Shown here one piece after another: positions 29,751 through 59,773 of a DNA stretch of 64,000 nt (the first letter of the stretch is position 1; the number at the start of each line of letters is the position of its first letter). The stretch spans positions 64,001 through 128,000 of the forward strand of contig JAEOUA010000011.1 of the NCBI GenBank assembly GCA_016839555.1, in the 5' to 3' direction. A program made the translations under genes and the position numbers. The stretch comes from Promethearchaeota archaeon. Lineage in GTDB: Archaea; Asgardarchaeota; Lokiarchaeia; Sigyniarchaeales; SOKP01. The notes beneath the pieces were generated by a model. It did not search any database, was not told the origin of the DNA, and was given only the letters and a program-made list of their open reading frames with translations.

Positions 29751-30695
29751 TTATAATATTTCTAAGATTGATTTTTTGGTAAAATGAATTTCTTTTTGGT
29801 TTGAATATTCATTTTCTTTTATAAAAACATTGAGAAGCTTTACAGCCATTCCTTTTTCGATTATCTTTAAAATATCAATTGCTTTCATATCCCATACATT
29901 TACTTCGATTGAACCTGTTTTGTCAGTTAATCCTAATTTTAGAAGAAACGATTTTTCACCATTATTTTTTGTAAATTCCTTTAATTCATAGCCGTTGATA
30001 AAGCCTGACGCAGATGTGATAAATCCGTCTGTCTTTAACAAATCCTTTATTTTTAGACTTACATTCTTCTTATTTTTATGTTGATATTGATATTCTGAGA
30101 GATCTAAATTCTCAATATTAACATCTTTAAGTTGGGAGCTAATCTTTTTAGGGATATCATCTGGCTCTAGAATAATTTTACTTTTTTTAGAAACATGGAC
30201 TTCAATTTTTTCATTTAATCCTATTTTTGAGTATCCATTGATAATACGTATGATTTTTCCTTTTGAAAAGAAATCTGATTTCATAATTTTGGATGGTTCA
30301 TTCCATAAAACAATTTTTATCATTCCAGTTGCATCAGCAAGTAAGAATGAACCCATAATTCCAGGAGTACCATCTTTTCTTACAAATTCTTTCAATGGAA
30401 ATATATCAATAATTTTTCCTAGTAGGACAAGATTCGTCATATTTTCTTTGATTTCAGCAATATCTATTAAAAACTCATTATAGTCAATTTCTTGTCCAAT
30501 TTCTTCATAAACCTCTTGATCTATATCAGGGGAAAGGATTTGGATTCCGTTTTCTTTAGCTATCAAAAATAATGCTCCTTGTTTGGTAATAAATCCGTGA
30601 AACTCTCGTTCTTTTTTTTCTATTTCTTCTTTTAACTCTTCTTCTGAAAAACCAATCTTTAATAAATAGTTATATACCTCTTGAATCTCGCTCAT
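29751..30695 (-). CDS. Replication protein A-like ssDNA-binding protein (N-terminal helical domain plus 2 OB folds)
   Basis: FHGFITKQGALFLIAKENG, EFVRKDGTPG...LADATGMIKIVLW, LTDKTGSIEVNVW. Confidence 0.88.
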   Translation of the reverse strand: MSEIQEVYNYLLKIGFSEEELKEEIEKKEREFHGFITKQGALFLIAKENGIQILSPDIDQEVYEEIGQEIDYNEFLIDIAEIKENMTNLVLLGKIIDIFPLKEFVRKDGTPGIMGSFLLADATGMIKIVLWNEPSKIMKSDFFSKGKIIRIINGYSKIGLNEKIEVHVSKKSKIILEPDDIPKKISSQLKDVNIENLDLSEYQYQHKNKKNVSLKIKDLLKTDGFITSASGFINGYELKEFTKNNGEKSFLLKLGLTDKTGSIEVNVWDMKAIDILKIIEKGMAVKLLNVFIKENEYSNQKEIHFTKKSILEIL

Positions 30696-31296
30696 TCTTA
30701 CTCAATACCCCTGTTTCAATCATTTTATTTTTAGTCTTATAAAAAGCATATGCGGAACAATTAGTAATAGCTCGAATATTTTCTACCAGGATTTTATTTT
30801 TGAAATGTGAATCATTTAAGTCTGTTATATATAATGTAAGTGCTAATTGGGTAGAGATTGTTGGCCAAAAATTTGCTTTAGTGAAAAAAACATGAAGGGA
30901 ATTGAGATTGATTTTAGCTCGATTATAATTAAAAAGCGGAGCAATCTTGTAAATCTTATGAAGATATACTTTCAATTTGTTATATAATAATGGTTTTCTA
31001 TGTTCCCAAGGAAATTTATATGATTTCAAAAAAGATGCATAAAAATACAAATTTCTAAGTGTTTTATTAATAATATTAGAAGTTAAAGGTTGGGAAATAG
31101 ATACTTTTTCTGAAATAGTAATTATTTTTTGAATTGGTAATGTTGATAATATATTTAAACTGCCTCGTGGAAAACAAATAGAGAAGTTTCTAAATAATAC
31201 ATTTAGAATGTTAGTTCTAATTTCTTTAAGACATAAATTATAGCTTAAAGGATTTGCAGTTTTATCTTTAAATATAACTGTAAAAGTATTTGCCAT
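30670..31296 (-). CDS. Hypothetical protein, possible cyclin/TFIIB-like C-terminal helices
   Basis: Overlaps the RPA start; P.ISTQLALTLYI...ILVENIRAITNCSAYAF resembles a TFIIB repeat. Confidence 0.55.
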   Translation of the reverse strand: MANTFTVIFKDKTANPLSYNLCLKEIRTNILNVLFRNFSICFPRGSLNILSTLPIQKIITISEKVSISQPLTSNIINKTLRNLYFYASFLKSYKFPWEHRKPLLYNKLKVYLHKIYKIAPLFNYNRAKINLNSLHVFFTKANFWPTISTQLALTLYITDLNDSHFKNKILVENIRAITNCSAYAFYKTKNKMIETGVLSKNERDSRGI

Positions 31297-31402
31297 TTTT
31301 CATTTTATCTTTTTTTTAGATTCTTAAAAGAGAATCTATTGACTCTATTTAAATAAAAAATGAAATTAAAAATGGACTCCGTGGTGAATTTTTAAAACTA
31401 TT

Positions 31403-32500
31403 TTAAAAGATCATATCTAAGGTCTTTTGGATAGTTTTTGGACGGTTTAATTCATATTGAAAATATTTTAAGGCGTTATAAAAGTTAGAAATCAAAATTT
31501 CGGTGTTCTTAGAAACTCTTTCCTTGTTTAAATTATGCTCTTTACATAATAAATAGAAGAGGCGCCTCTTATCAGGGGGATTCCAAAATATATCTTTGTC
31601 AAAAAAATCTAAGACTTCGGGTAAGAGAAATAATTTCCGAATTTTTAAAATTATTTTAGCATCAAGCTGAGAAAAATTATACTCGTCTTTTTTATGTTTA
31701 ATAATATTTTCCACATTTTCATATTGCTTTATTAGTTTCAATGCCGTCTTAGGACCAATATTTTTAATTCCTTCGAAGTAATCGGTTTTTAACAAAATTG
31801 CTAAATCAACTAGTTGAAATTGGTTTATATCCATTGTGGTTAAATTTTGCTGGAGATCAATAGCTAATGGGGTAATCTTCTGATATATCCATCGTCCCTG
31901 AATCTTCCTTCGCAAAGATTTTGAAAGGTTTTGTAATAGTTGAGGGCATCCGAACAATAAAGAATCAAAATCTTGGGAGTTGGAATAATCAGCAAAATTG
32001 TTTTTCACTATTGAAGCACATTGCGATTCGGCAGATGCCGGAGAGTCTATTACAGGAACTCCGATTGCTCTAAGTAATTCTTTTGATTCTTGGATTATAT
32101 TCGGCCATAAATATTCCTTTGAAAGGGCAATTCTTCTCGCTAATATGAAATTTTTACTATTAAGCGCATTTTTATATCGTTTTTGAGTGATACGAAAATC
32201 ATTTAATTGATTCTTGGTAATCACGCGCTTAAGTTCAGAGACCCTTCCATCGAAACAAAAGATGGGGAAAATATTTTTTGAATACAAAAATTTTACTCGA
32301 TATAACAGCCCATATAGATGGGAGATTGGTCTCTGCGTTCTATCAAGAATGAGATCGCTATGAAAAATCGTAGGGTTCTTATGACTAAAATGCAGTAAAC
32401 TCATAATAATATTGGGGGCGTCAACTGCGATGATGGAACCCTTTAATTCCGCAAGAGTTCTTTCTCTCCTCTGAATAATCGGATTTAATTTTACACCCAT
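31403..32500 (-). CDS. fen: Flap endonuclease-1 (XPG family) paralog
   Basis: MGV, IAVDA.N, SHLYGLLYR, FDG, SQDFDSLLFG, TDY..GIKNIGPKTA; C-terminal PIP box QKTLDMIF. Confidence 0.9.
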   Translation of the reverse strand: MGVKLNPIIQRRERTLAELKGSIIAVDAPNIIMSLLHFSHKNPTIFHSDLILDRTQRPISHLYGLLYRVKFLYSKNIFPIFCFDGRVSELKRVITKNQLNDFRITQKRYKNALNSKNFILARRIALSKEYLWPNIIQESKELLRAIGVPVIDSPASAESQCASIVKNNFADYSNSQDFDSLLFGCPQLLQNLSKSLRRKIQGRWIYQKITPLAIDLQQNLTTMDINQFQLVDLAILLKTDYFEGIKNIGPKTALKLIKQYENVENIIKHKKDEYNFSQLDAKIILKIRKLFLLPEVLDFFDKDIFWNPPDKRRLFYLLCKEHNLNKERVSKNTEILISNFYNALKYFQYELNRPKTIQKTLDMIF

Positions 32501-32550
32501 AATGTCATCAAATTATCCAAGCTATTAAATAAGTTATTATGAAGAGTATT

Positions 32551-32775
32551 TCAGATACGAATGCTAAAATATTCAAGACCTGTATGCACGCCACATACTA
32601 TTAGTAAAATAATAGATATAATAATTACATAAAACATATTATGGCGTCGGAATCGAGGCATCACTAATAGTCCAATGAGCCCCACAATTAAGCCCAATAA
32701 TCCGAGTATAGAGCCCAAAGCAATCAGGAATTCTACTCCCTCCATCATATCGCCAATATAATCTAATAATACCAT
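32551..32775 (-). CDS. Small two-helix membrane protein (VirB2/CedA1 pilin-like architecture)
   Basis: Two hydrophobic helices separated by the basic loop PRFRRH; has its own promoter element. Confidence 0.6.
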   Translation of the reverse strand: MVLLDYIGDMMEGVEFLIALGSILGLLGLIVGLIGLLVMPRFRRHNMFYVIIISIILLIVCGVHTGLEYFSIRI

Positions 32776-32842
32776 AATGAATCTATTTAATGAAATTATT
32801 TAAATAAAAAATCTTGACAGAATTAGAAAAAAGAAACTATCC

Positions 32843-33064
32843 TTATATTCCCCACAATTCTTTCATGATGCTAATAATCATCATAATATTATTAATGGAA
32901 AGGATGGATTCATCCTTATAGTACTCAAAATCAGCTTTTTCAAACTCATTGTGGCAATGTGGACACTCAAAGGTATCGCCATAATCTATAATTTTAGTCA
33001 TACCGCAATAGGGGCAGTGATATTGTTTCTTTGGTTTTTCATTTAGGTGATTAAATAGTTCCAT
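32843..33064 (-). CDS. Small zinc-ribbon protein
   Basis: CPYC...CPHC. Confidence 0.7.
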   Translation of the reverse strand: MELFNHLNEKPKKQYHCPYCGMTKIIDYGDTFECPHCHNEFEKADFEYYKDESILSINNIMMIISIMKELWGI

Positions 33065-33191
33065 CTGATCTTGTATATGACCAATCCTATTTAAACAAAA
33101 AGATTACAATCTCATTAAAATGTGAAACTATTTTTTCTTTAAATAAAAAGGCAAGATATTGTGCTTAACTAAATAAATTACCTTCTAAACT

Positions 33192-33509
33192 ATGAGAGAA
33201 TTGGAAGAAATTGGAGATTGCCCCCAATGCGGGTGCACGTTGATGATGTATAAAACTTCCAACTATAAGCGATTCGTAAAGTGCGAGGTATGTGGGAACT
33301 CCTATCCTGTACCTAAGAGTGGAAGCATTCATTCCTCAGCACTGTTATGTCCCCTCCGCAAATATCCGATATTGATCATTCAAAAAGAAAATTCCAAAGC
33401 GTATTTCTGGACGGATCGACCATGTTTCAGCTGTACGCATTATGATAAATGCCAAGAAGTTACATCATTAATCCAAGAATTTAGTCAATTAGAGGTGTAT
33501 GGCTATTAA
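33192..33509 (+). CDS. Zinc-ribbon protein resembling topoisomerase I C4 fingers
   Basis: IGDCPQCG.TL...KRFVKCEVCG, CP...CFSC...C. Confidence 0.7.
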   Translation: MRELEEIGDCPQCGCTLMMYKTSNYKRFVKCEVCGNSYPVPKSGSIHSSALLCPLRKYPILIIQKENSKAYFWTDRPCFSCTHYDKCQEVTSLIQEFSQLEVYGY

Positions 33510-34623
33510 TACCAAGAAATATATACATAAAAAATTTGGCTATATTATCCTTTTATTCGTCTGCTTGATGGGGGTCATTGTGATCGGTATTACATTAAAT
33601 GCTCATCATAAAGACCAATATGATAATGAATATGTTTATTCTTATATCTTGCATCAAATGCTTTTTCAAAAGGAAGAGATATCTTCCCCTGTACATAGCT
33701 CGATTCAAAGCAGTGAATATACTGACATGTTAGTGGATAAGGTATATACCTTTCTAGAGGGACACTATATATTGAATATTTCAGATCTCTATCTTATTAA
33801 AGGTTTTCGGTATTCTATTAGACTTGCAATAGTAACTGATAATCACCAATGCAATATGGAAATTAATCTTACGGATCCTATTGGGTGGTCTTACTATATT
33901 TTTGCTACAGATGGAAACAAGTTAACCTTTAATGAGTATCGGGAAATTCCCTATGGTGCGGCAAGAACGGGAAATCACACCCTTTATTTTGAGAAATTAG
34001 ACGGTCCCAATCTCAATATCCATATCCAAGTGATCAATGAAGGATTATGTTATGAGCTCTTTGATCCAGGGGAGAATATCTATTGGATAGATCTTATCCC
34101 GATTTCGCGACCAGAACCCCCTTCCGCAGGCATCAATTATCAAAAATATCTTTATTTATTACCACAACGAATGTATAGCATCCATATTTCGAGAGTGTCC
34201 GCAGTGCGCGCCGATTATTCCAATAAAATATATGTAGATCATAATGTGGTAGATCCTTCGGAGGATCATATTTCCTTTCCTATTTATACTCATAAACTTA
34301 TGAATGGGCTCTTTGAAGAAGATCAATATCACTTTGGCACGGCGATTCAAGGTACCTACCTGTTTAATTTTACTTTTTACCCTGATATGGAATATACCAA
34401 TATCTTACTCTTTGTGGTGGATGAGGGACAAATTGCTACTGGACAAAAGCCTCTTCCGTTTAATATTAGCTATTTGTTATCACTCGATCTCGAAGCTCCT
34501 GAGATCGTTCCCTCGGTATCTATGCCATTTGAGGCGCAATTGGGGCTCGGAATTGGAATCGGCTCTTTAATTATCATTGGACTTTCCATCGCGTTTTATA
34601 CGAAGCATAAATCGAATTTGTGA
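33499..34623 (+). CDS. Secreted/surface protein with N-terminal signal-anchor and C-terminal TM helix
   Basis: Hydrophobic N-terminus, beta-rich body, C-terminal TM followed by a basic tail. Confidence 0.7.
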   Translation: MAINTKKYIHKKFGYIILLFVCLMGVIVIGITLNAHHKDQYDNEYVYSYILHQMLFQKEEISSPVHSSIQSSEYTDMLVDKVYTFLEGHYILNISDLYLIKGFRYSIRLAIVTDNHQCNMEINLTDPIGWSYYIFATDGNKLTFNEYREIPYGAARTGNHTLYFEKLDGPNLNIHIQVINEGLCYELFDPGENIYWIDLIPISRPEPPSAGINYQKYLYLLPQRMYSIHISRVSAVRADYSNKIYVDHNVVDPSEDHISFPIYTHKLMNGLFEEDQYHFGTAIQGTYLFNFTFYPDMEYTNILLFVVDEGQIATGQKPLPFNISYLLSLDLEAPEIVPSVSMPFEAQLGLGIGIGSLIIIGLSIAFYTKHKSNL

Positions 34624-34741
34624 TCCTTTTCACTTTTCTTTTTTTAATATCTTATTTTTTTTCAAAATTTGGTATAAAAGATACTAACGACGGAATATCG
34701 ACATAAATATTAAAAACTAGAAAATCATAATACCCTCTATA

Positions 34742-35188
34742 TTGTTAAAGCTAGATATTTTTTTCATCCCTATGGAAAAACCATCATCTTATTACGATTG
34801 GCAATTGAGTTATCAAGAAAATCCCTCCGATAGCTTAAATAGGAAAATAAAGGATATTTTAAACAAATATTCGGACAGAAAAACTCTCTATAAAACAGCT
34901 TCCATTTCGAATTCCTTATTTAATATAGAAAAACTTGATTTTGAGGGAGGGATTTTAGAATGTTCTATAAAAGCAGAAGATCAAAATAAGCTTAAAATTA
35001 TTATTGATACTAAAAAGCGGATAATCTCTCATAAGTGCAGAGAATTTAAAGCACTAAACAACTATCGTAAAAAATTCTGCTCTCATCTGCTTAAATTATG
35101 TTTTATTTTACAGGAAAAAGCACCAACCCAATTAATCTCTTTTTTAAAAGATATAACTACTTATGATTATAATTTTTTTCCCAAATAA
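34742..35188 (+). CDS. Stand-alone SWIM-type zinc-finger protein
   Basis: Beta strands followed by SHKC-x13-CSHLLKL (HxC...CxH variant); ATG at 34772 is a likely start. Confidence 0.7.
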   Translation: MLKLDIFFIPMEKPSSYYDWQLSYQENPSDSLNRKIKDILNKYSDRKTLYKTASISNSLFNIEKLDFEGGILECSIKAEDQNKLKIIIDTKKRIISHKCREFKALNNYRKKFCSHLLKLCFILQEKAPTQLISFLKDITTYDYNFFPK

Positions 35189-35232
35189 TATAAAATTTGT
35201 TGAAAAAAAGAATAAAAAGAACATAGATTTTA

Positions 35233-36480
35233 TTATTCTGCTTGTTTTTGCCACTCTTCTATCATAGAATTGGATACACCACTTATTTTTGAGGAAAGTT
35301 CCTTGGGATCCGCATCTAATAGATCCTCTACGCTATGAATTCCTTGTTCCTTGAGGCTTTCTAAGGTACCCTTGCCAATGCCTTTAATGTCAGTCAATTT
35401 TTTAATATTAGAGCTTTCACTTTCTTCATCTTCATCCTCTTCGTCGAAAGAATCATCATCCTCGCTTTCTTCATACACCGTTTCTATATCAAATTCCAAG
35501 CTTTTTGCTTGAGGTAAATCCACTTCTTCTGAATCGGCAACCCCTGCACTGGTAATATAAAATTCACATTCCTCAGGAGGAAGGTCAGGTGCGTCCACTA
35601 TGATCGCACGTCGTTTCAAGGAACTATTAGATGAAAAACCTTTTGTTTTAAACATTATACGAAAGTGGCATCCGTGAGCGACGATATTACCTCCTATGGC
35701 ATCATCGGCAGAAAATAATCCTTTTATTTGCACTGCCACTTGATTTGTCACTAGAATTGCGGCGTTATACATTTCAGCAATTCGTGAAAGTGCGTGGATC
35801 ATATTATTTAAGACACATTGTCGTTTCGCTAACATACCAATCCCCACATATTCTGCTCTGAGGAGCGCCATCAAGCTGTCAACGATTACAAGGCGAACAT
35901 TACGATTCTTACAGAGTGTTTCAGCCTTGAGTATCATTTGGTCTTGATGATCAGAGCTAAAGATTCTCGCATGAAATACTTTTGATAAAGCTTCCTTAGG
36001 ATCTATCTTAAATCTTTTAGCAATTCGGATTATTTTACTACGTGAAAAGGTGTTTTCAGTGTCAATATAGGCAACCGAGCCTCCTAATCCTCCTTTTTTT
36101 TTGGATAATTGGACGGTTACCGCAAGAGTATGTGCTAAATTTGTTTTTCCAGATTTAAAAGGTCCATAAACTTCTGTTACTTTACCTGTTTGCATTCCAC
36201 CTCCTAAGATACGATCTAATTCAGACGAGCCTGTAGTAAAGAACTCTGTATTTTCGTCCATTTCTGATACAGGCGTAAATTCAGTCATATTAAGCGCGTT
36301 GCGAGCATTCCAGATCAGTGTTTTGACGGTTTTTTCCCCGAGTCCTTTAATTTCCGATACAACAATTTGAGAGGACATCGCAAGCATTTCTGCGGTTGAG
36401 ATCCCATTCTCTTGGAGAAGTTTTATATGACGTGAGTTGATTCCTTTAATCTGGCTTAATTCTGCTATTTTATTATACAC
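35233..36480 (-). CDS. radA: RadA/Rad51-family recombinase paralog with an extra C-terminal HhH domain
   Basis: TTGSSELDRILGGG, GPFKSGKT, YIDTENTF, VIVDS, RAEYVG...RQ, TNQV, GGNIVAH. Confidence 0.9.
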   Translation of the reverse strand: MYNKIAELSQIKGINSRHIKLLQENGISTAEMLAMSSQIVVSEIKGLGEKTVKTLIWNARNALNMTEFTPVSEMDENTEFFTTGSSELDRILGGGMQTGKVTEVYGPFKSGKTNLAHTLAVTVQLSKKKGGLGGSVAYIDTENTFSRSKIIRIAKRFKIDPKEALSKVFHARIFSSDHQDQMILKAETLCKNRNVRLVIVDSLMALLRAEYVGIGMLAKRQCVLNNMIHALSRIAEMYNAAILVTNQVAVQIKGLFSADDAIGGNIVAHGCHFRIMFKTKGFSSNSSLKRRAIIVDAPDLPPEECEFYITSAGVADSEEVDLPQAKSLEFDIETVYEESEDDDSFDEEDEDEESESSNIKKLTDIKGIGKGTLESLKEQGIHSVEDLLDADPKELSSKISGVSNSMIEEWQKQAE

Positions 36481-36630
36481 CCCACAATTATTTCTTTTTT
36501 AAATTCTAGTTTATTATAGTTATCATTTTTTAAAGTTAGAATTATATAAAGAAAAAATTCTAAGGAATGGGTTGAGAACCTAAAAATAAAAAAACAGTTA
36601 AGATTATACAAAAAGCGATATTTTCTTCCA

Positions 36631-36649
36631 AAATCCTTTACAAGGATTT
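36631..36649. promoter_or_regulatory. Inverted repeat AAATCCTT-tac-AAGGATTT between divergent promoters
   Basis: Perfect 8-bp arms with a 3-nt spacer, just upstream of CGAAAAGG-TTTTATAA. Confidence 0.4.
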
Positions 36650-36745
36650 AGAAAAAGTCCGAAAAGGTTTTATAAAATCAATACTAATATCATTATAAAT
36701 TTCATAAAAAGGTAAAATTTAATTCATAAATTTGAGGAAATTGAG

Positions 36746-37558: not shown

Positions 37559-37744
37559 TTTTTTTTAATTTTTTAAGAATTATTCAATTCTACTCTTTAA
37601 GAGCAAATTTATATGGAAAAAATTGATTAATTTAATTTGGTTTAAACGTGCTTTTAGTCATTTATTATTTTGCTTTCTACCAGAATTATTATCTAATAAT
37701 GATAATAGAGATTTAAGAGAAAAATTAAAAAAAAGAATTTAAAA

Positions 37745-38990: not shown

Positions 38991-38992
38991 TT

Positions 38993-41847: not shown

Positions 41848-41856
41848 TATGATTCA

Positions 41857-51963: not shown

Positions 51964-52206
51964 ATAAAAAAAATTTATTAAATAGAATGAATTGAGATGA
52001 AAATCATATTTATTGAGACTATTTAAACAAAAAGAGAAATATTTTTTTTATTGTTGATAATATCTCTCTCTCACGCAATACTTTTTTGAAAATTTAATGC
52101 GAAATTTCATATAAAAAAGGAATAGAATGTTTTAATTTTATCAAGTCGGTTTCATGCATTTTTTAATTTTTCCTTTAAATATAGTCAATTAATTGTAGTA
52201 TTAATT

Positions 52207-53811
52207 ATGAATAATATAATAGATAATATCTCTGATGATGCAAATAAGCAATCATGGGATATCACTTATTTGTTATCGATGGCAGAAAACGCACTCGAAA
52301 GTGGTGATATTGAACACGCTATGAGTTTAGCTCTGGGCGGAATGAAACTAGCAAAAAGCTCTAACGCTCAGTATTATCAAAAAGAATTTAGGGATATTAT
52401 TGGGAAAATTGAAGAGAATGAAGGAAGAAATAATACAAATAATACTAAAACTCCATCATATAATTCCCAAAAATCAAAAAAATTAGAATTGGATGGAGAA
52501 AAAAAAATATCTACTGAGAAGTTAAATCAAATATTGCGACTTAATAAAAATTTAGAGAATAAGGAGACACACGAAAACTTAGAAACGAAAGCTAATAAAG
52601 ATCCTTCTGAGTTCAAATCTTTTTTGAAAAATATGAATAATCCTTTAAAAATCAATTCCAAAAAAAGTCCATCAAATGTCAAAAAAACCATTCATAATAT
52701 GAAAAGCCAAATTTCTAACAAGATCAAAAATTCTTTTCTTGAACAGAAATATTTTTTGATAAATTCACTCCAAAATATTCAAGGGATTGATTTTCTCGCC
52801 CTTAAAACCATAGAAATCACAAAACATAAATTTTTAGTGCTATTAATCCCTATAAAATGGTGCCAAAATACCAGAGAGCATATCATAATCGAAGAGTATA
52901 ATGTCCGATTTGCTCATCATATAAGTGAAAATCAGTCAAAATTAAGCAAAATAATGCATCAAGATTTAATATTATTAAGGCAATCGCAAATCGAGATAAT
53001 AAGAGAAATCGCCGAGCAACAAACTTTATATGATATAATTAAACGATTTCTTAAGGAAAATTTTACAATGGAGACATTTCAGAATAATCAATGTGTCTAT
53101 TTTCATAATGGGCTGAGAGAATATAAAGTAATCACCTCGCCAATATATATTAGTACGCAAAAAATTGGTTTTTTAGAGAAGGTGTTACCTTACCCCTATC
53201 AGCGATCTTCAAATATTCATTTTGCAGAGTTAGATAAATTATCACTCCTTTTATCGTTCATAGAACAGAAATATGCGGCAATCACAGAATATTCTGAGGA
53301 AGAAAATACCATTCAACATCAATCAGAGCAATATAATAATTACTTAGACAGAATCCAAAAATGCTCGATACCATTTATCCCTGTTTCACTGTTATTATTG
53401 ATTTTAAGTATCTTTTTTGCAGGAGATTCTTTTATGATCTTATTAGGCTCAGGAATTTTTTTTCTGGTGCTCTATGGCATTCTTTTTGCCTTTTTTACAA
53501 TCATGTATCTTAAGACTATTTCTAAGATTAAGAATGAGCTGCAGAATTCCACCAACATGAATTCTCGCCCACCTTTACTGGATGAAACAGATTTAGAACT
53601 GATCGCTCAATATTTTCCTGAACAAGAAATGGAACAATTTATTTATGAATGTTTTGGAAAAGATTATGAGTTTGGTACGACTACATTTCATTATAATAAT
53701 AATTATATAACACCAAAAGAAGATCTTGAGAGACCTCAAGAGCGTACAGATAAAGCGGAGAATAACAAAAAGGAAGCCCTATCTAAATATATCCAACTTT
53801 TAGAGGACTAA
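52207..53811 (+). CDS. Hypothetical membrane protein (helical N-terminus, low-complexity linker, 2 TM near the C-terminus)
   Basis: First gene of a tightly packed operon. Confidence 0.75.
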   Translation: MNNIIDNISDDANKQSWDITYLLSMAENALESGDIEHAMSLALGGMKLAKSSNAQYYQKEFRDIIGKIEENEGRNNTNNTKTPSYNSQKSKKLELDGEKKISTEKLNQILRLNKNLENKETHENLETKANKDPSEFKSFLKNMNNPLKINSKKSPSNVKKTIHNMKSQISNKIKNSFLEQKYFLINSLQNIQGIDFLALKTIEITKHKFLVLLIPIKWCQNTREHIIIEEYNVRFAHHISENQSKLSKIMHQDLILLRQSQIEIIREIAEQQTLYDIIKRFLKENFTMETFQNNQCVYFHNGLREYKVITSPIYISTQKIGFLEKVLPYPYQRSSNIHFAELDKLSLLLSFIEQKYAAITEYSEEENTIQHQSEQYNNYLDRIQKCSIPFIPVSLLLLILSIFFAGDSFMILLGSGIFFLVLYGILFAFFTIMYLKTISKIKNELQNSTNMNSRPPLLDETDLELIAQYFPEQEMEQFIYECFGKDYEFGTTTFHYNNNYITPKEDLERPQERTDKAENNKKEALSKYIQLLED

Positions 53812-53829
53812 TTATTGGTGATTTTTGAG

Positions 53830-54558
53830 ATGAAAACAAATTTATTGTTTAAATTGCTCTATTTTATTGGGTGCGGAATTGCGTTTTTAGGGATATTTTT
53901 TGATTTTTATTCCTATGATGTTTTTATTTTAGGTAATATTAAGCTTACTTCGTGGAGTTATAACTTATTTGAGGGATGGAATGTAAATAATACATTTGAA
54001 GCATCCTTTTTTGCTACCTTAAATCCTTTCTTTTTTATAATCATAGTGTTTTTATTATTAAAATACCCTCCTATACTCTCCATTAGTCCATTATTTCACA
54101 TTATTTTTTTGGGTGTAATTATTACCTCTGTATTATGTTTGCTATTTAAAGGATTAGAAGACTCAAAAAATTTATCGGATTTGACATTTTATGCATTTTT
54201 ACATATATTTTTATTGTTGTTAGTAGGGTTTTACACTATAGTATTTCCCATGTTTTATTTAATTCCCCATAACCTTTATTTTCCGTTTACAACCATTAGA
54301 GAGCCATTTTTAGGAATAACATATCATTATTTTTTGGGTATTGGCTATTTTTTAGAATTTATTGCATTTATATTACTTTTTCCTTATGCTGTTTTTTATT
54401 TGCAAACAGTGAGAAACTATGAAATTTCAGATGAAAGCACTCAAATAACTGAGGAATTAATAAATAAAGCAAATATAAGAATCGATATTGATAAATTAAT
54501 CGCAGAAGAGGAGTTCAAGTTTAAATTTAAAACTCATATGGAGGGTAAGCGTAAATGA
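53830..54558 (+). CDS. Hypothetical polytopic membrane protein
   Basis: 4-5 TM helices; ATG after a GGTGA SD; ATGA overlap with the next gene. Confidence 0.75.
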   Translation: MKTNLLFKLLYFIGCGIAFLGIFFDFYSYDVFILGNIKLTSWSYNLFEGWNVNNTFEASFFATLNPFFFIIIVFLLLKYPPILSISPLFHIIFLGVIITSVLCLLFKGLEDSKNLSDLTFYAFLHIFLLLLVGFYTIVFPMFYLIPHNLYFPFTTIREPFLGITYHYFLGIGYFLEFIAFILLFPYAVFYLQTVRNYEISDESTQITEELINKANIRIDIDKLIAEEEFKFKFKTHMEGKRK

Positions 54559-55484
54559 ATGATCAAACCACATACGAAAAATTACACGCTTTAATTACCG
54601 TTTGTAAGCGAACGCAAAATTATAAAAAATTGGCACACACGGGTTATTTTTTGTTAAGCAATCAAGTAAATGAGATAGGTATACGATTAGGATTCCGTGT
54701 GAGAAAGACAGTAACCCAATCAAAATCCTCTAAATTTTTTACAAACAAAGGTTCTTACCAGAAGGAGACAATTTATGATTATTTAAATCAGATTAATAAT
54801 AGTTTCTCAACTAATCTTGATATAGAAATATTTAATGCCGATTTTCTTAAAAATTTGAAAAAGGCAGAGCTTCTATATATAAAATCAAGTGGAAAACTAA
54901 GATTATATCAAATTGCAACCCTTTTTGAGCTTTATTTTAAGTTAAAGGAACTCGAAGTCCCTAATCTTCGTAAAAAAATATCGAGCACTAAGCTACATAA
55001 TGTAGTCCCCTTTTATATGTATTCTTCGTTACTCTCTCCAACTAATTCATATAAAAATAAAGATGACAACCAGAGATTAGGGATAAAAAATTTAATATTT
55101 TTTGAGTTACAGAAAAAAGAGAATGTTCTAAAAGCTGAACTCCAACAGGATTATAATCCTAAATTATTAGAGGATATGTTGATATTGAAACAAATCAAGA
55201 AATCTTTTAAAAAATCTCCTTCCGATAAGATAAAAATAAGAAATTCATTATCAGAAAGTTTTTCTTATCAAAAATCACTGAATTCTCTTTATGGTTATTT
55301 CATTTTTGGGCTCTTTTTCGGTTTTTTTTGTTTAGGAATTAATATAATTGGGCTAATATTAATAAGTCCCTTTTTATTAGGGGCATTAGGCTTTTTTCTC
55401 TTATTGATATTAGGATCGACCATACTTTTCTTTTATATATATTGGACGAATTTCCTAAATAAAAAAGAAGTGATGCCCATTTGA
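54555..55484 (+). CDS. Hypothetical protein with 2 C-terminal TM helices
   Basis: Overlaps both neighbours by 4 nt. Confidence 0.75.
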   Translation: MNDQTTYEKLHALITVCKRTQNYKKLAHTGYFLLSNQVNEIGIRLGFRVRKTVTQSKSSKFFTNKGSYQKETIYDYLNQINNSFSTNLDIEIFNADFLKNLKKAELLYIKSSGKLRLYQIATLFELYFKLKELEVPNLRKKISSTKLHNVVPFYMYSSLLSPTNSYKNKDDNQRLGIKNLIFFELQKKENVLKAELQQDYNPKLLEDMLILKQIKKSFKKSPSDKIKIRNSLSESFSYQKSLNSLYGYFIFGLFFGFFCLGINIIGLILISPFLLGALGFFLLLILGSTILFFYIYWTNFLNKKEVMPI

Positions 55485-58400
55485 AATATGAAAGAAGCAG
55501 TAATAACAATATGAATAAGGAATTCTATAGTAATGAGAGGAAGGAAGAAATATTAAAGGGAAAATCCTCGAGTTATTTAAATATATGGGAGAAAATACCT
55601 TCCTATAAAGATATTAATACCAATATCGGTATTATGAGATTTATTACTCTATTTACTCTAACAGGAATATTAATACTGTTCTCATTTTATGTGATTGGAA
55701 ATATTTTTTTTTCCATTATATTTCCCACTTCTTTAATATCTATTTTTCTGATAGGTTTTCGGGAAAATATTTTTCTTTTTTCGGGACTTGGAAAGTATAA
55801 ATACGGTCAAGTCCACCCGTTTAGAAATTTCCGATTTTGGCAAATAGATGAGCATCAAGATACTTTATATTTAACAAATACACAAGATTTAATTCACACA
55901 GGTATAAGATTATATAAAATATCAGTAATTCCCGAAAATATCCAGCCTAATTTAAATCATTTTATCAAGTCTTTATACATTTCTAAGATCCCGTTTTCCT
56001 ATCAAGTTGTTCAAACACCATTAGTTCAAAATACATCTGAAAGTATGAATATCACGATCCTCTTTGCACTTTCTTATTATGTTAAAGGGATCATAAGCAA
56101 AATAAAAATAACTAAAATTAAAGATGCGTTAGAAATATTTAGTTATACCTTTGAGAGTGCGTGTATTGCAAATCTAGCACATTATAAAATCGAAAGCCTA
56201 TCTGGAGTTGAATTGATTTATGCGTTTAGATCCTTAATAAGTTTAGTTGCAGAAGAACCAAAAAATTTCTCGGATGGAAATAGCTTCATAAGAAAAATAG
56301 ATAACAATTCAGTGCTTAAGCTTATAGTTATGTCGGTCATAATAATTTATATTTTTATATTGATTGGTCTTTCTCCAATAAAATTTTATTGGGCATTAGT
56401 TATAAATGGAGGATTCTTCTGTATATTCTTATCTCTTTTTTGGCGTGAAGCTTTATATGGTATTACTCAATTTAGTTTTCTTAAAAATAATGAATCTTAT
56501 AAAATTATTGAACCCTTCAAAGAAATCTCCTTTTATCGCTTTCGACCCTTTAGAGATATATTATTTATTCATAGTAATAATAAGGTTCTTACTGGAATTC
56601 ATTTTTTTAATGTAAAATTTGCCCTTCCACCACAGTTTTTATCAAAAGATCGTTTTATTGGTCGGATAGAAAAATTTTTTAGAGCAATTGTAAGTAAAAA
56701 GCTTCCTTTTACTTATACTCTGATAACATCACCAATATTTTGGGAAATTTTTGAAAAAGAGGGTTTAAAGCATGTGATCCCTAGTATCGCTATAGAATTG
56801 CGTCAAAGAAAAAAGGAATATGAATGGGAGCAATGGTTAGATATGAGAAGCGGAATCTGGAGGGTGATAGATCTCTATTCCATTCAAGAGCATGTCCTTA
56901 CAACGCACATTAATGAGGATTCGTTATATAAACTTTCAAAAAAATTGAATCAAAGTTCAAATGCATTTTTAAACCTATTTAAAGCCAATATTTCTAATTA
57001 CGAGATTGAACCATTAAATTCAAAATATATCTTTCCAGGGATATATGCTATCTTTTTAAAATCAAAATTTTTCAGGATGAATGGAACTCACTTAAATTAT
57101 TTGTTGTTGCAGGGAAAAACAATAATAAACCTAATGGAACTTTCTTCAGTATTTAAAAAAGGAATAGAGACGAGATTAGCGGCAGAATTTAATACCCCTC
57201 TTAATTTATCCAATTTTATTACCATCGGTAAGACACTTAATACCGAATTTTTGAAAGAAGAGGTTCCAGCGGGATTTACTCTTGATCAAGTGAAGAATCT
57301 ATTAATAACCAATGGCACATTCCGCAATCGAGAAAACTTGTTGCAGAAAATCGTGGTGGAATTGGTTAAGCATAAAACTCCCTCTATAGTTTTTGATTAT
57401 AATGGTACATTTACTAAATTCCTTCCTTATTTCGCGGGGAGCCGATTTGAAGATGATTTGTTGTTTTTTTCTTTAGGGAAAAATTTTCAATTGGATCCTT
57501 TCGATTCAGATATTCCTTATGATAAAGAAAGGGACGCCTATATAGATTATATCGTGGACATCTTGGCAATGGTCTATAAACAAAGAAAACTCATAATGGA
57601 TAGTTTAAGGGAAATCTTAAAGGAAGAGAATTTCTCGTATGCTGAATTCCTATTGGATGTGAAAAATAAAAATATTTGGGAAAAAAATTCGGGCATGGAT
57701 TCGCTTGTTTCGATGCTTAATAAAATTAAAGAAGTACCAAGCGTAATATCCAATAAAACTGAAGAAGATTCTGGAACTGAGAGATGGGCTGAGGATCAAG
57801 TTTATGCATATCAATTCGTGCAGAATGATAAGACTATCATTATAGATCTCTCCATATTTCGGGATTTAGAACCTAAAGTTTTTATGGCGTTTGTTATTAT
57901 TGCAAAGATCATATTTTATATGGCACAATTTCAAGACGAAGTAGATTCTATGTATGAAAAATTGATCATTATTCCTAATGGAGATATTATCTTTGATAAT
58001 TTTTATCTCGATACACAGATCAATTATCGTTACGGTAAAGTGATGAAACTTCTTCAACCACTTCACATTCTCAATCTTGGTGTGGTAATGACTTCCAATC
58101 AAATTCGATATCTTCATCCCAATGTGTTTAACTATTTTGCCAATATTGTTACGTTTAAAGCGACTGATAAGCGAGATATCAACGCCTTGAAAAATCAGAT
58201 GAGTCTGCAAGAATTACATGGCGTAGGATACTATAGTTCATCAAGAAATGATTCCTATCAAATCCAATTTCTTATGAATCTTAAAGAGAATGAAATTATT
58301 GTGAAGCGAGCAGACTTCCTTCAACCATTTCCTGTGATAATAGAACAGGATCAGTTAAATGAATTAATGCCTGTAAGGCAAGAAGAGATAAATGAGTATA

Positions 58401-59374
58401 TGTCGCAGCAAGGATATGATCTTTACGATAAAGAGAGCAGAATTCTTTCCAGTACGCAAAAAACCCTTTTTGAACAACACTTTAAGAATTATATTATATT
58501 TTTGGATGAAATCATTAAATTTTTTAGTATCTTGCAGACATTAGATAATGTAGGTAATTTATATAAAAGCAAAATAAAAGATGAATTACTTAAAATCATT
58601 TATCCAAAAGTACAGAAAAAGTTTGGTAAAGATAAACGACAGATAAAGCTTATCAGAGATAAATTATTCAATATTTTCTTACAACATAGTTATATCATCG
58701 AGAATCACCCCCGAAGAGCAAGTGGATCTCAATCAATCAGACCATCTTATTCGGTGGGGCCTCAGTATCAAGAATCTCTTGATGATTACTTCGAAACGGA
58801 ACAAGAAAGACCGACTAAGATTTCAGTTGAAACTCTTGAACACGAATCAGATAAAAATAGCAATTTTGAAAAAATTCTTGGAATAGAATCAAATGAAAAA
58901 GAAGAAAATTATATAGTAACAAAAAATCATAATCAAAAGGATATTAAAGAAATTTTATTAGATTATTCTTCGAAATTATTGGAAAATCTAATCGATATTT
59001 CGGTATTTATTGATGAAAAGAAATATGAAAAGGCAATTATATTGGAGCGCGCAGTTTTAACTGATTTTTTAGTTAATGTGTATTGTTCATTTTATCCCGA
59101 AGAAAAGAATGAAATGCCGGAATTATTGATAGATAAGGCTACTACATTTTTACTAAAGAATGTACCCCTTTCCATCAGTAGAAAATATGTAGACGATCTC
59201 TTAGAACGATGTAAATTACAAGAAATCAAGGAAGATAATATAGAAGAATATAAACTTGAAATAAACCAGCTTTCAGATTTACTTTTCGAATTCTTCACTA
59301 CTTTCCATAATGATATAAGAAAATTAATAAAGAATAATGAAAAAAATAAAAGGAATTATGAAATGTTATGGTGA
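55481..59374 (+). CDS. Large membrane-anchored HerA/VirB4/FtsK-fold protein with degenerate Walker motifs
   Basis: ITIGK...KNLLITNGTFRNRE...SIVFDYNGTF, TIIIDLS, LIIIPNGD, GVVMTSNQ..YL...V..F..IVTFK...D follow the HerA/VirB4 motif order. Confidence 0.7.
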   Translation: MKYERSSNNNMNKEFYSNERKEEILKGKSSSYLNIWEKIPSYKDINTNIGIMRFITLFTLTGILILFSFYVIGNIFFSIIFPTSLISIFLIGFRENIFLFSGLGKYKYGQVHPFRNFRFWQIDEHQDTLYLTNTQDLIHTGIRLYKISVIPENIQPNLNHFIKSLYISKIPFSYQVVQTPLVQNTSESMNITILFALSYYVKGIISKIKITKIKDALEIFSYTFESACIANLAHYKIESLSGVELIYAFRSLISLVAEEPKNFSDGNSFIRKIDNNSVLKLIVMSVIIIYIFILIGLSPIKFYWALVINGGFFCIFLSLFWREALYGITQFSFLKNNESYKIIEPFKEISFYRFRPFRDILFIHSNNKVLTGIHFFNVKFALPPQFLSKDRFIGRIEKFFRAIVSKKLPFTYTLITSPIFWEIFEKEGLKHVIPSIAIELRQRKKEYEWEQWLDMRSGIWRVIDLYSIQEHVLTTHINEDSLYKLSKKLNQSSNAFLNLFKANISNYEIEPLNSKYIFPGIYAIFLKSKFFRMNGTHLNYLLLQGKTIINLMELSSVFKKGIETRLAAEFNTPLNLSNFITIGKTLNTEFLKEEVPAGFTLDQVKNLLITNGTFRNRENLLQKIVVELVKHKTPSIVFDYNGTFTKFLPYFAGSRFEDDLLFFSLGKNFQLDPFDSDIPYDKERDAYIDYIVDILAMVYKQRKLIMDSLREILKEENFSYAEFLLDVKNKNIWEKNSGMDSLVSMLNKIKEVPSVISNKTEEDSGTERWAEDQVYAYQFVQNDKTIIIDLSIFRDLEPKVFMAFVIIAKIIFYMAQFQDEVDSMYEKLIIIPNGDIIFDNFYLDTQINYRYGKVMKLLQPLHILNLGVVMTSNQIRYLHPNVFNYFANIVTFKATDKRDINALKNQMSLQELHGVGYYSSSRNDSYQIQFLMNLKENEIIVKRADFLQPFPVIIEQDQLNELMPVRQEEINEYMSQQGYDLYDKESRILSSTQKTLFEQHFKNYIIFLDEIIKFFSILQTLDNVGNLYKSKIKDELLKIIYPKVQKKFGKDKRQIKLIRDKLFNIFLQHSYIIENHPRRASGSQSIRPSYSVGPQYQESLDDYFETEQERPTKISVETLEHESDKNSNFEKILGIESNEKEENYIVTKNHNQKDIKEILLDYSSKLLENLIDISVFIDEKKYEKAIILERAVLTDFLVNVYCSFYPEEKNEMPELLIDKATTFLLKNVPLSISRKYVDDLLERCKLQEIKEDNIEEYKLEINQLSDLLFEFFTTFHNDIRKLIKNNEKNKRNYEMLW

Positions 59375-59380
59375 TTTATC

Positions 59381-59773
59381 ATGGAATCAGAAAATAACGC
59401 AATATTAAGTTTATTTTTCGATTTATTAGAAAGAACCATTTTAAATGTGGACCAATTGAAAAAATTAAAACAAATTAGTAAAGAGTTTGGAATCCAAGAA
59501 GATAGAATTTCAGAATTTATGGAATATTTTATAACTTATTTACTAGATGTCTTAGAGAAACAAAAAAAAAGATTACCAAAATTTATTTATAGGTTATTTA
59601 TCTCTCAATCCTCAAATTATTACTCAAATCAAAATCAAAATATTAATGAAAGAAATTCAGAAGAAAAAAATTCAAAAATTAAAGAACTTGAGGGTTCATT
59701 AATACAGAGAGATGAACTTTTAGAAAAAATAGCACAGCGCCTTGACATCATCCGCAAAAAAATAGCAGACTAA
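59381..59773 (+). CDS. Hypothetical coiled-coil protein, last gene of the operon
   Basis: GGTGA SD overlapping the upstream stop; helical C-terminus. Confidence 0.65.
   Translation: MESENNAILSLFFDLLERTILNVDQLKKLKQISKEFGIQEDRISEFMEYFITYLLDVLEKQKKRLPKFIYRLFISQSSNYYSNQNQNINERNSEEKNSKIKELEGSLIQRDELLEKIAQRLDIIRKKIAD

Follow-up and report, generated by a model that had tools for sequence, protein, structure and literature searches.

A relocatable accessory island of Lokiarchaeia carrying a TFB paralog, a private promoter motif, and envelope and recombination genes

The window, i.e. the whole 64,000-nucleotide stretch of Lokiarchaeia (SOKP01) DNA analysed here, contains a discrete accessory block of about 40 kb (approximately 20,300-60,200), called the island below. 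It is accessory and relocatable, was found in one family and occurs in partial form in the sister family, and, judged from sequence, it behaves as one evolutionary and regulatory unit. An envelope and recombination programme driven by a TFB paralog is a well-supported interpretation of its predicted genes, and DNA exchange by the island is plausible.

A sequence-only reading of this DNA had placed the locus at 29751-59773. The genes it listed are real, most of them borne out by Pfam, NCBIfam or fold searches, but the unit is larger and more sharply bounded, with a left edge near 20,300. Comparison with the empty site of relatives puts the insertion point between a DHQS gene and Snf7/MetE-like genes. 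These flanks are adjacent in seven relatives, four of them of the same genus. DHQS and the MetE-like gene are separated by 0.84-0.94 kb in G002, G008, G009 and G010, with Snf7 confirmed in between, by 0.86-0.9 kb in G004 and G006, and by 1.8 kb in G005; the last three genomes carry the island at another place. The Snf7 gene adjoining the island is part of the conserved flank and not of the island, which is bracketed by an imperfect 131-bp direct repeat that includes the DHQS 5' end:

19155-20291, minus strand: DHQS gene
20211..20343: left repeat copy (functional DHQS 5' end and about 50 nt upstream)
60064..60194: right repeat copy (decayed DHQS 5' fragment, then native DHQS-Snf7 intergenic sequence)

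Local alignment of the two copies scored 95, against a mean of 30 and a maximum of 51 for shuffles. The DHQS fragment in the right copy has lost its start and contains stop codons, and this copy can be aligned to the intergenic sequence of the empty site in G002.

When the clustering was compared across Asgard genomes, as had been proposed, gene order proved to be kept while the flanks were scrambled: approximately 25-30 genes are collinear across genera, in differing genomic contexts and with flanking synteny lost. The position of the island differs between genomes, even inside one genus, and its presence is polymorphic within genera. In a phylum-wide sample, orthologs of the island RadA paralog (56-82% identical to it) were found in 35 of 54 genomes of one family, in one of five genomes of the sister family and in none of 192 genomes across 28 other Asgard families. 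Further orthologs occur in two sister-family genomes, G029 and G030, the former bearing FEN1-paralog, Hel308-like, RadB-like and RadA-paralog genes inside 10 kb. The RadA paralog, the FEN1 paralog and Hel308 are jointly absent from four genomes that are 95-99% complete (G001, G008, G009 and G010). Almost all of the islands examined carry a TFB-like gene, among them the minimal, 6-kb island of G228, which lacks nearly everything except the TFB-like, RadA-paralog and GTPase genes and a 73-aa Zn-ribbon gene. Each of the five fully flanked islands that were examined, the minimal one included, has the GTPase pair, and the G225 island lacks the membrane operon.

Most transcription units of the island are headed by a promoter motif composed of T5-6, C/G, an optional C and TTTAWATA:

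20394+, 23396-, 23427+, 24802+, 27630-, 27700+, 33101-: strict copies
33132+, 36556-, 38193-, 41949+, 52033-, 52167+: strict copies, continued (the whole set spanning 20394..52181)
before 30670-31296, 32551-32775, 45077, 45845, 48814 and 49055: looser copies

The 3.74-Mb genome holds 48 strict matches, and the island, which makes up 1.1% of it, contains 13 of them where 0.5 would be expected (a 25-fold enrichment). Twelve of these precede an ORF start by 23-62 nt, and the thirteenth, at 20394, is 3 nt away from the start given for 20411-20824. At positions -6 to -2, T reaches 85-100% in the island promoters, compared with roughly 40% at 668 further TATA-like sites of the same genome, upstream of which the T-run is not found. 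Five other genomes gave 26 matches in 154 kb of island, compared with one in 129 kb of flanks and none in 63 kb of island-less loci, and even a contig with 42% GC retains the motif. The island genes are very probably co-regulated, and synteny, presence/absence and promoter enrichment together place their clustering beyond chance.

The regulator suggested by the earlier reading was confirmed as a TFB paralog by its domains and by its family profile, which matched only TFIIB/TFB in the PDB (E 1e-5):

40594..41847, plus: divergent TFB paralog (417 aa; Zn ribbon, cyclin repeat 1, tail of about 120 aa)

Its own promoter lacks the T-run, and we only infer that the protein acts on T-run promoters. 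The genome encodes three further TFB paralogs and ten canonical TFBs. Another contig, C7, carries a paralogous module of TFB-like, surface, HerA-like, M50B-like and GTPase genes that is devoid of DNA-repair genes; the membrane part is therefore not obligatorily tied to recombination.

The genes for DNA handling, with the small genes among them, are as follows:

29751-30695, minus: RPA-like OB-fold protein (Pfam CDC24_OB3 and OB fold), the sole PF17244 match in the genome
30670-31296, minus: 208-aa protein, overlapping the RPA-like gene by 26 nt
31403-32500, minus: FEN1/XPG paralog (XPG_I, E 8e-20)
32551-32775, minus: 74-aa protein with two TMs, loose promoter motif, followed by the FEN1 paralog
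32843..33064, minus: 73-aa Zn-ribbon protein
33192-33509, plus: topoisomerase-type Zn-ribbon protein, overlapping the 374-aa surface protein gene
34742..35188, plus: 148-aa protein with an HxC...CxH (SWIM-like) motif
35233..36480, minus: RadA/Rad51 paralog (HhH, RecA core, extra C-terminal HhH; Rad51 E 2e-70)
36746..37558, plus: alpha/beta hydrolase, one of many paralogs
38244-38990, minus: RadB/KaiC-like P-loop ATPase (weak match; P-loop GKAGTGKT)
within 37745..40160, minus: 125-aa Zn-finger protein with its own strict promoter copy (38193)
45077..48498, plus: 206-aa protein, Hef-type helicase and DUF1922 Zn-ribbon protein
45845-47941, plus: the Hef-type helicase (698 aa), without ERCC4 nuclease
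48814..49342, minus: two small ORFs (65 and 95 aa), a promoter variant before each
49417..51963, minus: Hel308-type helicase (848 aa)

The RadA paralog has the Walker A sequence GPFKSGKT; two better RadA copies, on C2 and C3, share 64% identity with each other and 38% each with it. The FEN1 paralog is 30% identical to a better copy on C1, and the canonical Hef (helicase and ERCC4) lies at C1:427301-429403. The notion of an atypical second set of DNA enzymes thus holds for RadA, FEN1 and Hef, which are truly extra and divergent, but fails for Hel308, the only detectable copy in the genome with archaeal domain 4, and part of the recombination kit may therefore be housekeeping. The SWIM candidate has no Pfam match and is recognised by its HxC...CxH motif alone; its paralog sits between PolD DP1 and Cdc6 on C12. 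The alpha/beta hydrolase is probably a passenger, as no island promoter precedes it and other islands do not conserve it.

The surface, glycan and GTPase genes, with the other genes near them, are as follows:

20411..20824, plus: 137-aa protein, with a 61% paralog in the C7 module
20892..23338, minus: GTPase operon, supported by synteny
22793-23338, minus: 181-aa GTPase partner
22107-22775, minus: Arf/Ras-family small GTPase (Pfam Arf, E 2.6e-11)
20892-22046, minus: 384-aa protein of the same operon
23497..28914: glycan-modification sub-cluster (two GNAT-like proteins, a 136-aa ORF, a membrane protein and a WbuX-like protein)
23497-24744 and 26401-27567: the GNAT-like proteins (Atlas GNAT clusters, 0.95-0.96, a lead only)
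25514-26338: the membrane protein
27760-28914: WbuX-like N-acetyl-sugar amidotransferase (NCBIfam WbuX, E 3.8e-28, under the curated cut-off)
28985..29701, minus: metallo-beta-lactamase-fold hydrolase (Pfam, E 1.5e-19)
within 33192..34623, plus: 374-aa protein (N-terminal TM, two jelly-roll, CBM/GOLD-like beta-sandwiches, C-terminal TM)
39414-40160, minus: M50B-like 6-TM protein (weak match)
42009..44975, plus: acidic 988-aa surface protein (N-terminal TM/signal, alpha-alpha toroid domain, C-terminal TM anchor)

With its terminal TMs and two beta-sandwiches, the 374-aa protein looks like a surface adhesin or lectin; in its AF2 model (m2e694764a7ea, pLDDT 70.6) each domain reached Z 9-10 to GOLD/CBM domains. 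No fusexin fold was seen in this protein, the single surface protein folded. A 72% paralog of the 988-aa protein adjoins a TFB-like paralog on C7, and the glycan sub-cluster includes a weak FdhC match. Positions 37745..40160 hold four co-conserved genes on the minus strand, of which the closely spaced M50B-like, 119-aa TM and RadB/KaiC-like genes probably form one operon. No type IV pilus genes were detected, and the candidates for the former label 'pilin-like' are short TM proteins, nothing more. A cell-contact component, as the sequence-only reading had proposed, would suit the predicted surface, glycan and adhesin-like genes.

The right part of the island is occupied by the membrane operon:

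52207..59773, plus: five-gene membrane operon (gaps between genes of -4 to +6 nt)
products 1-3: 534 aa (TM hairpin), 247 aa (5 TM), 309 aa (C-terminal TMs)
products 4-5: 1297 aa (N-terminal TMs and a HerA/VirB4-fold pseudo-ATPase), 130-aa coiled-coil protein

The tight packing and the HerA/VirB4-fold member noticed earlier were both upheld, the fold of residues 330-1010 (approximately) of the 1297-aa protein matching HerA and TrwK/VirB4 (Foldseek E 1e-11 to 1e-8); no Pfam family was matched. Its fold and N-terminal membrane anchor resemble those of the FtsK/HerA/VirB4 pumping ATPases, and distant relatives show a weak C-terminal winged-helix match, as in FtsK. However, Walker A is missing in 12 of 12 orthologs, none of the 150 best family matches has a P-loop at the expected position, and a conserved LLITNGxxxxRE replaces it in this family (215 clusters among 1.84 billion representatives). 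As the family lacks Walker A, the protein cannot be a CedB-like motor. No other translocase, pilus ATPase, relaxase or DNA-uptake nuclease was detected in the island.

In Sulfolobales, the Ups/Ced programme depends on the TFB3 paralog. Its Ups pili and Ced importer (CedA/A1/A2/B, CedD/E) are induced by DNA damage (PMC11868833). The island similarly ties a TFB paralog to membrane proteins and DNA recombination, its operon has a layout similar to that of Ced (polytopic membrane protein, small TM-hairpin proteins and TM-anchored HerA/VirB4-fold protein), and its glycan/lectin-type parts could serve cell recognition. On the other hand, its HerA-fold protein has no Walker A, no similarity to Ced proteins is detectable in sequence, and no type IV pilus genes accompany it. 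Ups/Ced genes form dispersed chromosomal operons, whereas the island is a single movable block with a private promoter and with RadA, FEN1, RPA-like and helicase genes of its own.

The fusexin elements of haloarchaea (Moi et al. 2022, PMC9259645) were proposed to act in gene exchange that depends on cell contact. They encode XerC/D integrases and active VirB4/TraG ATPases, and their k-mer spectrum deviates. The island lacks all three, but is likewise an integrated, patchy block that came to light through comparison of genomes that have it with genomes that do not, and combines surface proteins with HerA/VirB4-type genes. In Sulfolobus acidocaldarius, the TFIIB paralog TFB2 is associated with the promoters of a defined gene set and drives the division regulon (bioRxiv 10.64898/2026.09.06.749720). 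A link of a TFIIB paralog to the promoters of a defined set is proposed for the island as well; however, the TFB2 regulon is core and dispersed and controls ESCRT-III division genes, whereas the Snf7 neighbour of the island is flank.

The island might instead encode a programme that acts inside the cell, in stress, DNA damage, the cell cycle or development, without DNA transfer (for example in dormancy, protrusion formation or division), and that would resemble the Sulfolobus regulons of TFB2 for division or of TFB3 for damage. We regard this as unlikely, though less so than the other alternatives. It shares the private promoter and TFB paralog with the exchange reading, a catalytically dead HerA-fold protein suits a scaffold rather than a pump, and a GTPase, an M50B-like protease and glycan enzymes are parts typically seen in envelope or signalling systems. 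Precedents exist in the TFB2 control of division genes (bioRxiv 10.64898/2026.09.06.749720) and in the damage-induced Ced/Ups genes (PMC11868833). Nevertheless, it leaves unexplained both the movable, patchy insertion with its flanking repeat and the island-free, near-complete close relatives. A fortuitous neighbourhood of unrelated housekeeping repair and membrane genes is very unlikely: the sole Hel308 copy and passenger-like genes such as the alpha/beta and MBL hydrolases would suit it, but not the collinearity and joint loss of the genes, nor a motif enrichment repeated in five other genomes.

A serious rival, if a rather improbable one, is an integrated selfish element (provirus- or plasmid-like) with its own transcription factor, in which RadA, RPA, FEN1 and the helicases would support recombination-dependent replication or integration in the manner of T4-like phages, and the envelope genes superinfection exclusion, egress or transfer. 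The sequence-only reading had argued from missing mobility and virion genes against an ordinary plasmid or provirus. Indeed, Pfam, NCBIfam and PHROGs scans found no integrase, replication initiator, primase, terminase or capsid protein in the island. The argument against a mobile element nonetheless fails, because the insertion is a clean 40-kb indel whose flanking direct repeat duplicates the 5' end of a gene, and its site and presence vary within genera. The private promoter class and private TFB also suit such an element. Proteins of the FtsK/HerA superfamily and jelly-roll proteins are characteristic of icosahedral viruses that contain a membrane. FtsK/HerA-type ATPases in archaeal integrated elements have been discussed (PMC4158269). 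However, the jelly-roll protein is TM-anchored and resembles individual CBM/GOLD domains rather than a capsid protein of the double-jelly-roll type, and neither the HerA-like nor the TFB-like protein has relatives in IMG/VR. Tetranucleotide signature and GC content are ordinary, 0 of 17 CRISPR spacers match the island, and its proteins are about as diverged as host proteins.

Confidence in the whole explanation proposed here falls a little short of even; within it, we tentatively take contact-dependent passage of DNA between cells, with integration by homologous recombination, as the most likely purpose. An Asgard system coupling cell contact, DNA transfer and recombination had been suggested before; the conserved unit, its own TFB and the extra RadA, FEN1 and Hef stand, and the Ced-like motor does not. 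The island TFB, transcribed from an ordinary promoter, would read the T-run instead of a normal BRE and so switch on the whole block. The envelope half would remodel the cell surface by means of the glycan amidotransferase, the GNATs, the two-lectin-domain protein and the 988-aa protein, together with the Arf-like GTPase module, the M50B-like/KaiC-like operon and a membrane platform centred on the catalytically dead HerA/VirB4-fold scaffold. The recombination half would be a spare kit, with the RadA paralog for strand exchange, the RPA-like protein as ssDNA binder, the FEN1 paralog removing flaps, and Hel308 and the nuclease-less Hef acting on branched DNA.

Since it was found in one family, in partial form in the sister family and in none of the 192 genomes from 28 other Asgard families, the block is not a trait of the Asgard ancestor, and the bearing on the origin of eukaryotic sex once claimed for it is weakened. 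Such passage of DNA may benefit the host, the spread of the island itself, or both.

The gene cluster that the sequence-only reading had placed at 29751-59773 proved to be a real single unit, but its start had been set too far to the right. The true unit (the island) extends from about 20,300 to 60,200 and also comprises an Arf-like GTPase operon, two GNAT-like genes, a WbuX-like sugar amidotransferase gene and a gene for a membrane protein. The features referred to below are as follows:

20211-20343: left copy of an imperfect direct repeat that brackets the island
31403-32500: FEN1 paralog
33499-34623: 374-aa protein beside the RadA paralog
34742-35188: SWIM-like protein
35233-36480: RadA paralog
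40594-41847: TFB-like gene
49417-51963: Hel308
52207-59773: five-gene membrane operon, gene gaps of -4 to +6 nt
60064-60194: right copy of the imperfect direct repeat
60290-60943 (+): Snf7/ESCRT-III gene
Contig C6, 5-1356 (contig end): CRISPR array with a 37-nt repeat beginning ATAGCAAAGAATGTAGC and 17 spacers of 36-41 nt

In the studied genome (G000; 3.74 Mb, 12 contigs, 30% GC) the island separates a DHQS gene from Snf7 and MetE-like genes. The order DHQS, Snf7, MetE-like is found in G002, which belongs to the same genus, and in the related genomes G008, G009 and G010; all four have a DHQS to MetE-like spacing of 0.84-0.94 kb, compared with 40.7 kb in G000, and keep the further-out synteny on either side of the site. 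G004, G005 and G006, of the same genus, likewise have an empty site, though the island sits on other contigs there; insertion beside DHQS is therefore peculiar to the G000 lineage. In G029, a member of the sister family, the recombination cluster already adjoins DHQS. The Snf7/ESCRT-III gene was considered as an island member and rejected; it is a part of the conserved flank. The conserved N-terminal ~70 residues of its product (Pfam E 2.3e-9) precede any ATG, GTG or TTG, and relatives align from residue 2-3 with 61-77% identity (35% in G009), which calls for an explanation, such as a non-canonical start codon. To the left of DHQS, window positions ~10,200-19,150 form a second G000-specific segment of ~9 kb, recognized because the match of 8870-10195 directly adjoins DHQS in G002, G008 and G009.

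The direct repeat consists of 131-bp copies that are 74% identical (alignment score 95, versus a mean of 30 and a maximum of 51 for shuffles). Its left copy contains the DHQS 5' end in working form; in the right copy this 5' end has decayed, with the start lost and stop codons present. No flanking repeats were found around the islands of G109 and G225, and only noise was returned when other islands were searched by tblastn for fragments resembling the DHQS 5' end. Homology-driven insertion of a circular intermediate would fit the repeat, but this is speculation.

The island shows several features of integrative elements, namely sites left empty in relatives, a direct repeat on its flanks and insertion points that differ between genomes. 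Searches with Pfam, NCBIfam and PHROGs revealed no integrase/recombinase, relaxase or replication initiator, though several island ORFs have no assignment, and the window contains no tRNA genes. PHROGs also gave no match for ten ORFs of unassigned function. The composition of the island is native: its tetranucleotide distance lies at the 78th percentile and its GC content is 0.292, versus 0.296 for the genome. A search of IMG/VR with the HerA-like and TFB-like profiles yielded no relatives, and none of the 17 spacers of the C6 array matched the islands. PADLOC reported only generic helicase matches in the island (HamB-type for Hel308) and nothing in the membrane operon.

The sequence-only reading had called for a comparison of synteny across Asgard genomes. 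The block order is indeed conserved, but only within one family, with a partial form in the sister family. The conserved series comprises the FEN1 paralog, RadA paralog, RadB-like, M50B-like, TFB-like, surface protein, Hef-like, DUF1922 and Hel308 genes and the membrane operon. It is collinear as a whole in G004, G006, G007, G016, G109, G210 and two NCBI MAGs, and scrambled yet contained within 42 kb in G013 and G169. Reduced islands were found in G225 (without the membrane operon), G005 (compact) and G228 (only TFB-like, RadA paralog, zinc ribbon and a GTPase pair). The flanks of the relatives' islands map to scattered G000 contigs; gene order in the background is thus shared over just a few genes, whereas the island keeps ~25-30 genes in order. 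The sister-family genome G029 carries FEN1-paralog, Hel308-like, RadB-like and RadA-paralog genes within 10 kb. Orthologs of the RadA paralog occur in 35/54 genomes of the family and 1/5 of the sister family, and in none of 192 genomes from 28 other families of the phylum. In the near-complete genomes G001, G008, G009 and G010, the RadA paralog, FEN1 paralog and Hel308 are absent together. Such a narrow range argues against an ancestor of eukaryotic sex and weakens the bearing on its origin that had been proposed for the cluster.

That the block forms a single regulon is indicated most strongly by a private promoter. The motif searched for (five T, then C or G, an optional C, and TTTAWATA) has 48 matches in the G000 genome, 13 of them in 20,000-60,500, where 0.5 would be expected. 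The 12 densest 40-kb motif bins of the genome all overlap the island. Twelve of the 13 island motifs are on the correct strand, 23-62 nt ahead of an ORF start; the motif at 20394 is 3 nt from the listed start of 20411-20824. Positions of the T-run are 85-100% T in the island; at 668 other TATA-like sites, the corresponding upstream positions have background composition. Exact or closely similar motifs were found at the GTPase operon, the glycan genes, the RPA operon, the 2-TM/FEN1 unit, both zinc-ribbon units, the RadA paralog, the zinc-finger gene beside the RadB-like operon, the surface protein gene, the 206-aa/Hef/DUF1922 unit, Hel308 and the membrane operon. The promoter in front of the TFB-like gene is of the ordinary kind. 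Matches outside the island mostly precede nothing, and the genes behind them mostly encode proteins without known function and give no functional clue.

In five other genomes, 26 strict motifs were counted in 154 kb of island, versus 1 in 129 kb of flanks and 0 in 63 kb of island-less loci, and the motif is retained upstream of orthologous genes even on a 42%-GC contig. The whole-genome motif excess over the reversed control averages about +11 in island-bearing and +3 in island-less relatives; as these genomes share ancestry, and as G008 and G010 make the contrast less clear, the higher counts are only consistent with such a code and do not constitute a test of it. A single contig of G008 (C286:10,000-61,000) carries eight exact motifs, in a genome without the RadA paralog, FEN1 paralog and Hel308, and this cluster may be another island with the same promoter code.

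The expected TFB paralog was recovered as a divergent TFB with a zinc ribbon and a first cyclin repeat. The CxxC...CxxC of the N-terminal ribbon is invariant in 11 sequences (Pfam Zn_Ribbon_TF E 1e-3), and PDB profile matches of the first cyclin repeat are exclusively TFIIB/TFB chains (E 1e-5 to 1e-3); the NCBIfam TFIIB match (E 2.6e-6) is under the curated cut-off. The second cyclin repeat, with its BRE-reading helix-turn-helix, was not detected by PF00382, the NCBIfam model or the PDB profile. With ten canonical TFB genes containing two cyclin repeats and four divergent TFB-like genes (410-420 aa), the basal-factor set of G000 is unusually large.

A paralogous module is located at C7:144,000-169,000, the next-ranking region in motif density after the island, with 3 strict promoter motifs and no DNA-repair genes. 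It contains a TFB-like gene (67%) beside a gene for a 1420-aa surface protein (72%), a HerA-like pseudo-ATPase (50%) beside an M50B-like protein, an Arf-like GTPase, a roadblock-like protein, a 137-aa-protein paralog and large proteins without assignment.

Nearly all of the genes named from sequence were borne out by Pfam, NCBIfam, PDB-profile and fold searches, i.e. RPA-like OB, FEN1/XPG, Rad51/RadA, Hef-type helicase, DUF1922 zinc ribbon and Hel308, and, by weak matches, a RadB/KaiC-like P-loop protein and an M50B-like membrane protein. The presumed SWIM protein has the HxC...CxH motif, but no family match. A 227-aa paralog of it is encoded between the PolD small subunit and Cdc6/Orc1 genes (C12:34051-37926), a replication-origin-type neighbourhood, and Hel308 carries a SWIM-like CxC...CxH motif (residues 574-598) in a segment inserted between its helicase core and domain 4. 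PDB profile searches with 26401-27567, 23497-24744 and 20892-22046 gave nothing significant.

The view of these enzymes as a second set is true of RadA, FEN1 and Hef, which are extra copies, but not of Hel308. The RadA paralog (PF08423 E 2.3e-70, HHH_5 in two stretches, Walker A GPFKSGKT) has an extra C-terminal HhH, atypical for RadA/Rad51. Two further RadA copies, on C2 and C3, match the Rad51 model more closely; identity is 64% between these two and 38% between them and the island copy. In many relatives, matches to the canonical RadA copies hold one in-frame stop. The FEN1 paralog has the XPG_N and XPG_I nuclease domains and H3TH, and a better FEN1 copy, 30% identical, is encoded on C1. 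The island Hef-type protein consists only of a helicase and a helical bundle, without the ERCC4 nuclease that follows the helicase in euryarchaeal Hef; ERCC4 is present in G000 only on C1, as a helicase-plus-ERCC4 Hef, and on C10. Hel308, with a Ski2-type helicase core and archaeal domain 4, is the sole PF21280 match in the genome; a C4 helicase 29% identical to it is of another family, with DUF5814. Three models detected no further RPA-type proteins in G000.

The proposed HerA/VirB4 fold in the membrane operon was assessed with an AlphaFold model of residues 330-1010 of the 1297-aa protein, built on 11 orthologs (pLDDT 66.6). As the top 50 Foldseek matches in the PDB are all HerA, HerA-containing defence complexes, the related TdpAB complex or VirB4/TrwK (E 1.8e-11 to 1.5e-7), the fold claim holds for the modelled protein, which is predicted to combine a RecA-like P-loop core fold with a TM anchor. 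The Walker A motif GxxxxGK[ST] is absent: all 12 orthologs and paralogs instead have a conserved LLITNGxxxxRE where it would be expected, and a P-loop is likewise missing at this position from all 150 best representatives of the family, which numbers 215 clusters among 1.84 billion. The protein hence appears to be a scaffold rather than a CedB-like motor, a putative membrane-anchored pseudo-ATPase. Three distant members (P0222, P0261 and P0269; 815-980 aa) have weak C-terminal winged-helix matches (HTH_34/PadR), and their layout of TM, motor fold and winged helix recalls FtsK; the conserved segment 1005-1110 of the 1297-aa protein had no significant winged-helix match against PDB sequences. 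The operon also encodes a 5-TM protein (53815-54558) and TM-hairpin proteins, none with a Pfam or NCBIfam match, and a 534-aa protein for which the Atlas search gave no usable match.

Of the surface proteins, that of 988 aa is membrane-anchored. The 374-aa protein has TM helices at both ends and two jelly rolls, whose best matches are single GOLD/CBM domains (Z 9-10); TM-scores against the PRD1 and STIV capsid proteins are just 0.17-0.22, and the model offers no convincing double-jelly-roll capsid match.

The damage-induced Ced/Ups genes of Sulfolobus (PMC11868833) are among the closest comparisons. CedB/CedD are HerA-clade ATPases with functional Walker A/B, often TM-anchored; the island protein shares the fold and the TM anchor, but not Walker A. 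CedA is VirB6-like and polytopic and CedA1/A2 have 2 TM; the island has a 5-TM protein and TM-hairpin proteins, which match no Pfam or NCBIfam family. Pfam families of the Ups type IV pilus (PilB-like ATPase, PilC-like platform, pilins) were not found among the island ORFs. Ced/Ups are damage-induced via a TFB paralog; the island has a TFB paralog and a private promoter. Other relevant reports concern the regulon of the paralog TFB2 in Sulfolobus (bioRxiv 10.64898/2026.09.06.749720), HerA/VirB4-bearing integrated elements in Haloarchaea (PMC9259645) and a second RadA clade in some Asgard archaea (PMC12722695). The literature searched yielded no description of the island or its promoter, of a C-terminal-HhH RadA paralog as part of an accessory block, or of the HerA-fold pseudo-ATPase family.

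Our results firmly support the island as a movable accessory regulon that combines envelope remodelling with a spare recombination kit, and this regulon is very probably driven by the TFB paralog. A serious rival is a selfish integrative element, which would explain the clean insertion, flanking repeat and differing sites as well as the patchiness and the private promoter with its own TFB; against it speak the failure to find integrase, replication or virion genes, the native composition, and the lack of IMG/VR relatives and spacer matches. A programme acting wholly inside the cell, in damage response or development, also fits and accounts for the regulon, but leaves the mobility unaccounted for.

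The reading that uses all parts, and which we infer, is DNA passage between cells followed by recombinational integration. A Ced-like mechanism for it is counted against by the apparently dead ATPase, the lack of pili and the absence of a recognised DNA-uptake enzyme. We consider it rather improbable, yet worth stating, that the island is self-transmissible without an integrase. Its own TFB would turn it on via the private promoter code; lectin and glycan surface parts, together with the HerA/VirB4-fold membrane platform, would establish cell contact; and its RadA paralog, with the RPA-like protein, FEN1 and helicases, would drive homologous recombination of the island itself or of any imported DNA. 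The 74%-identical DHQS repeat would then be the scar of a homology-driven, Campbell-type insertion.

The accessory regulon provides a tangible example, in Asgard archaea, of an alternative code for basal promoters, in which a divergent TFB would be paired with a T-run replacing the BRE, tied to a defined set of ~30 genes. Our analysis also defines a family of putative membrane-anchored HerA/VirB4-fold pseudo-ATPases, and describes the relocation of a 40-kb block in which no integrase is recognisable. Some Lokiarchaeia possess a third, strongly conserved RadA paralog within this accessory programme, alongside surface and membrane genes, an arrangement with the same rationale as that of a recombinase reserved for a particular occasion.
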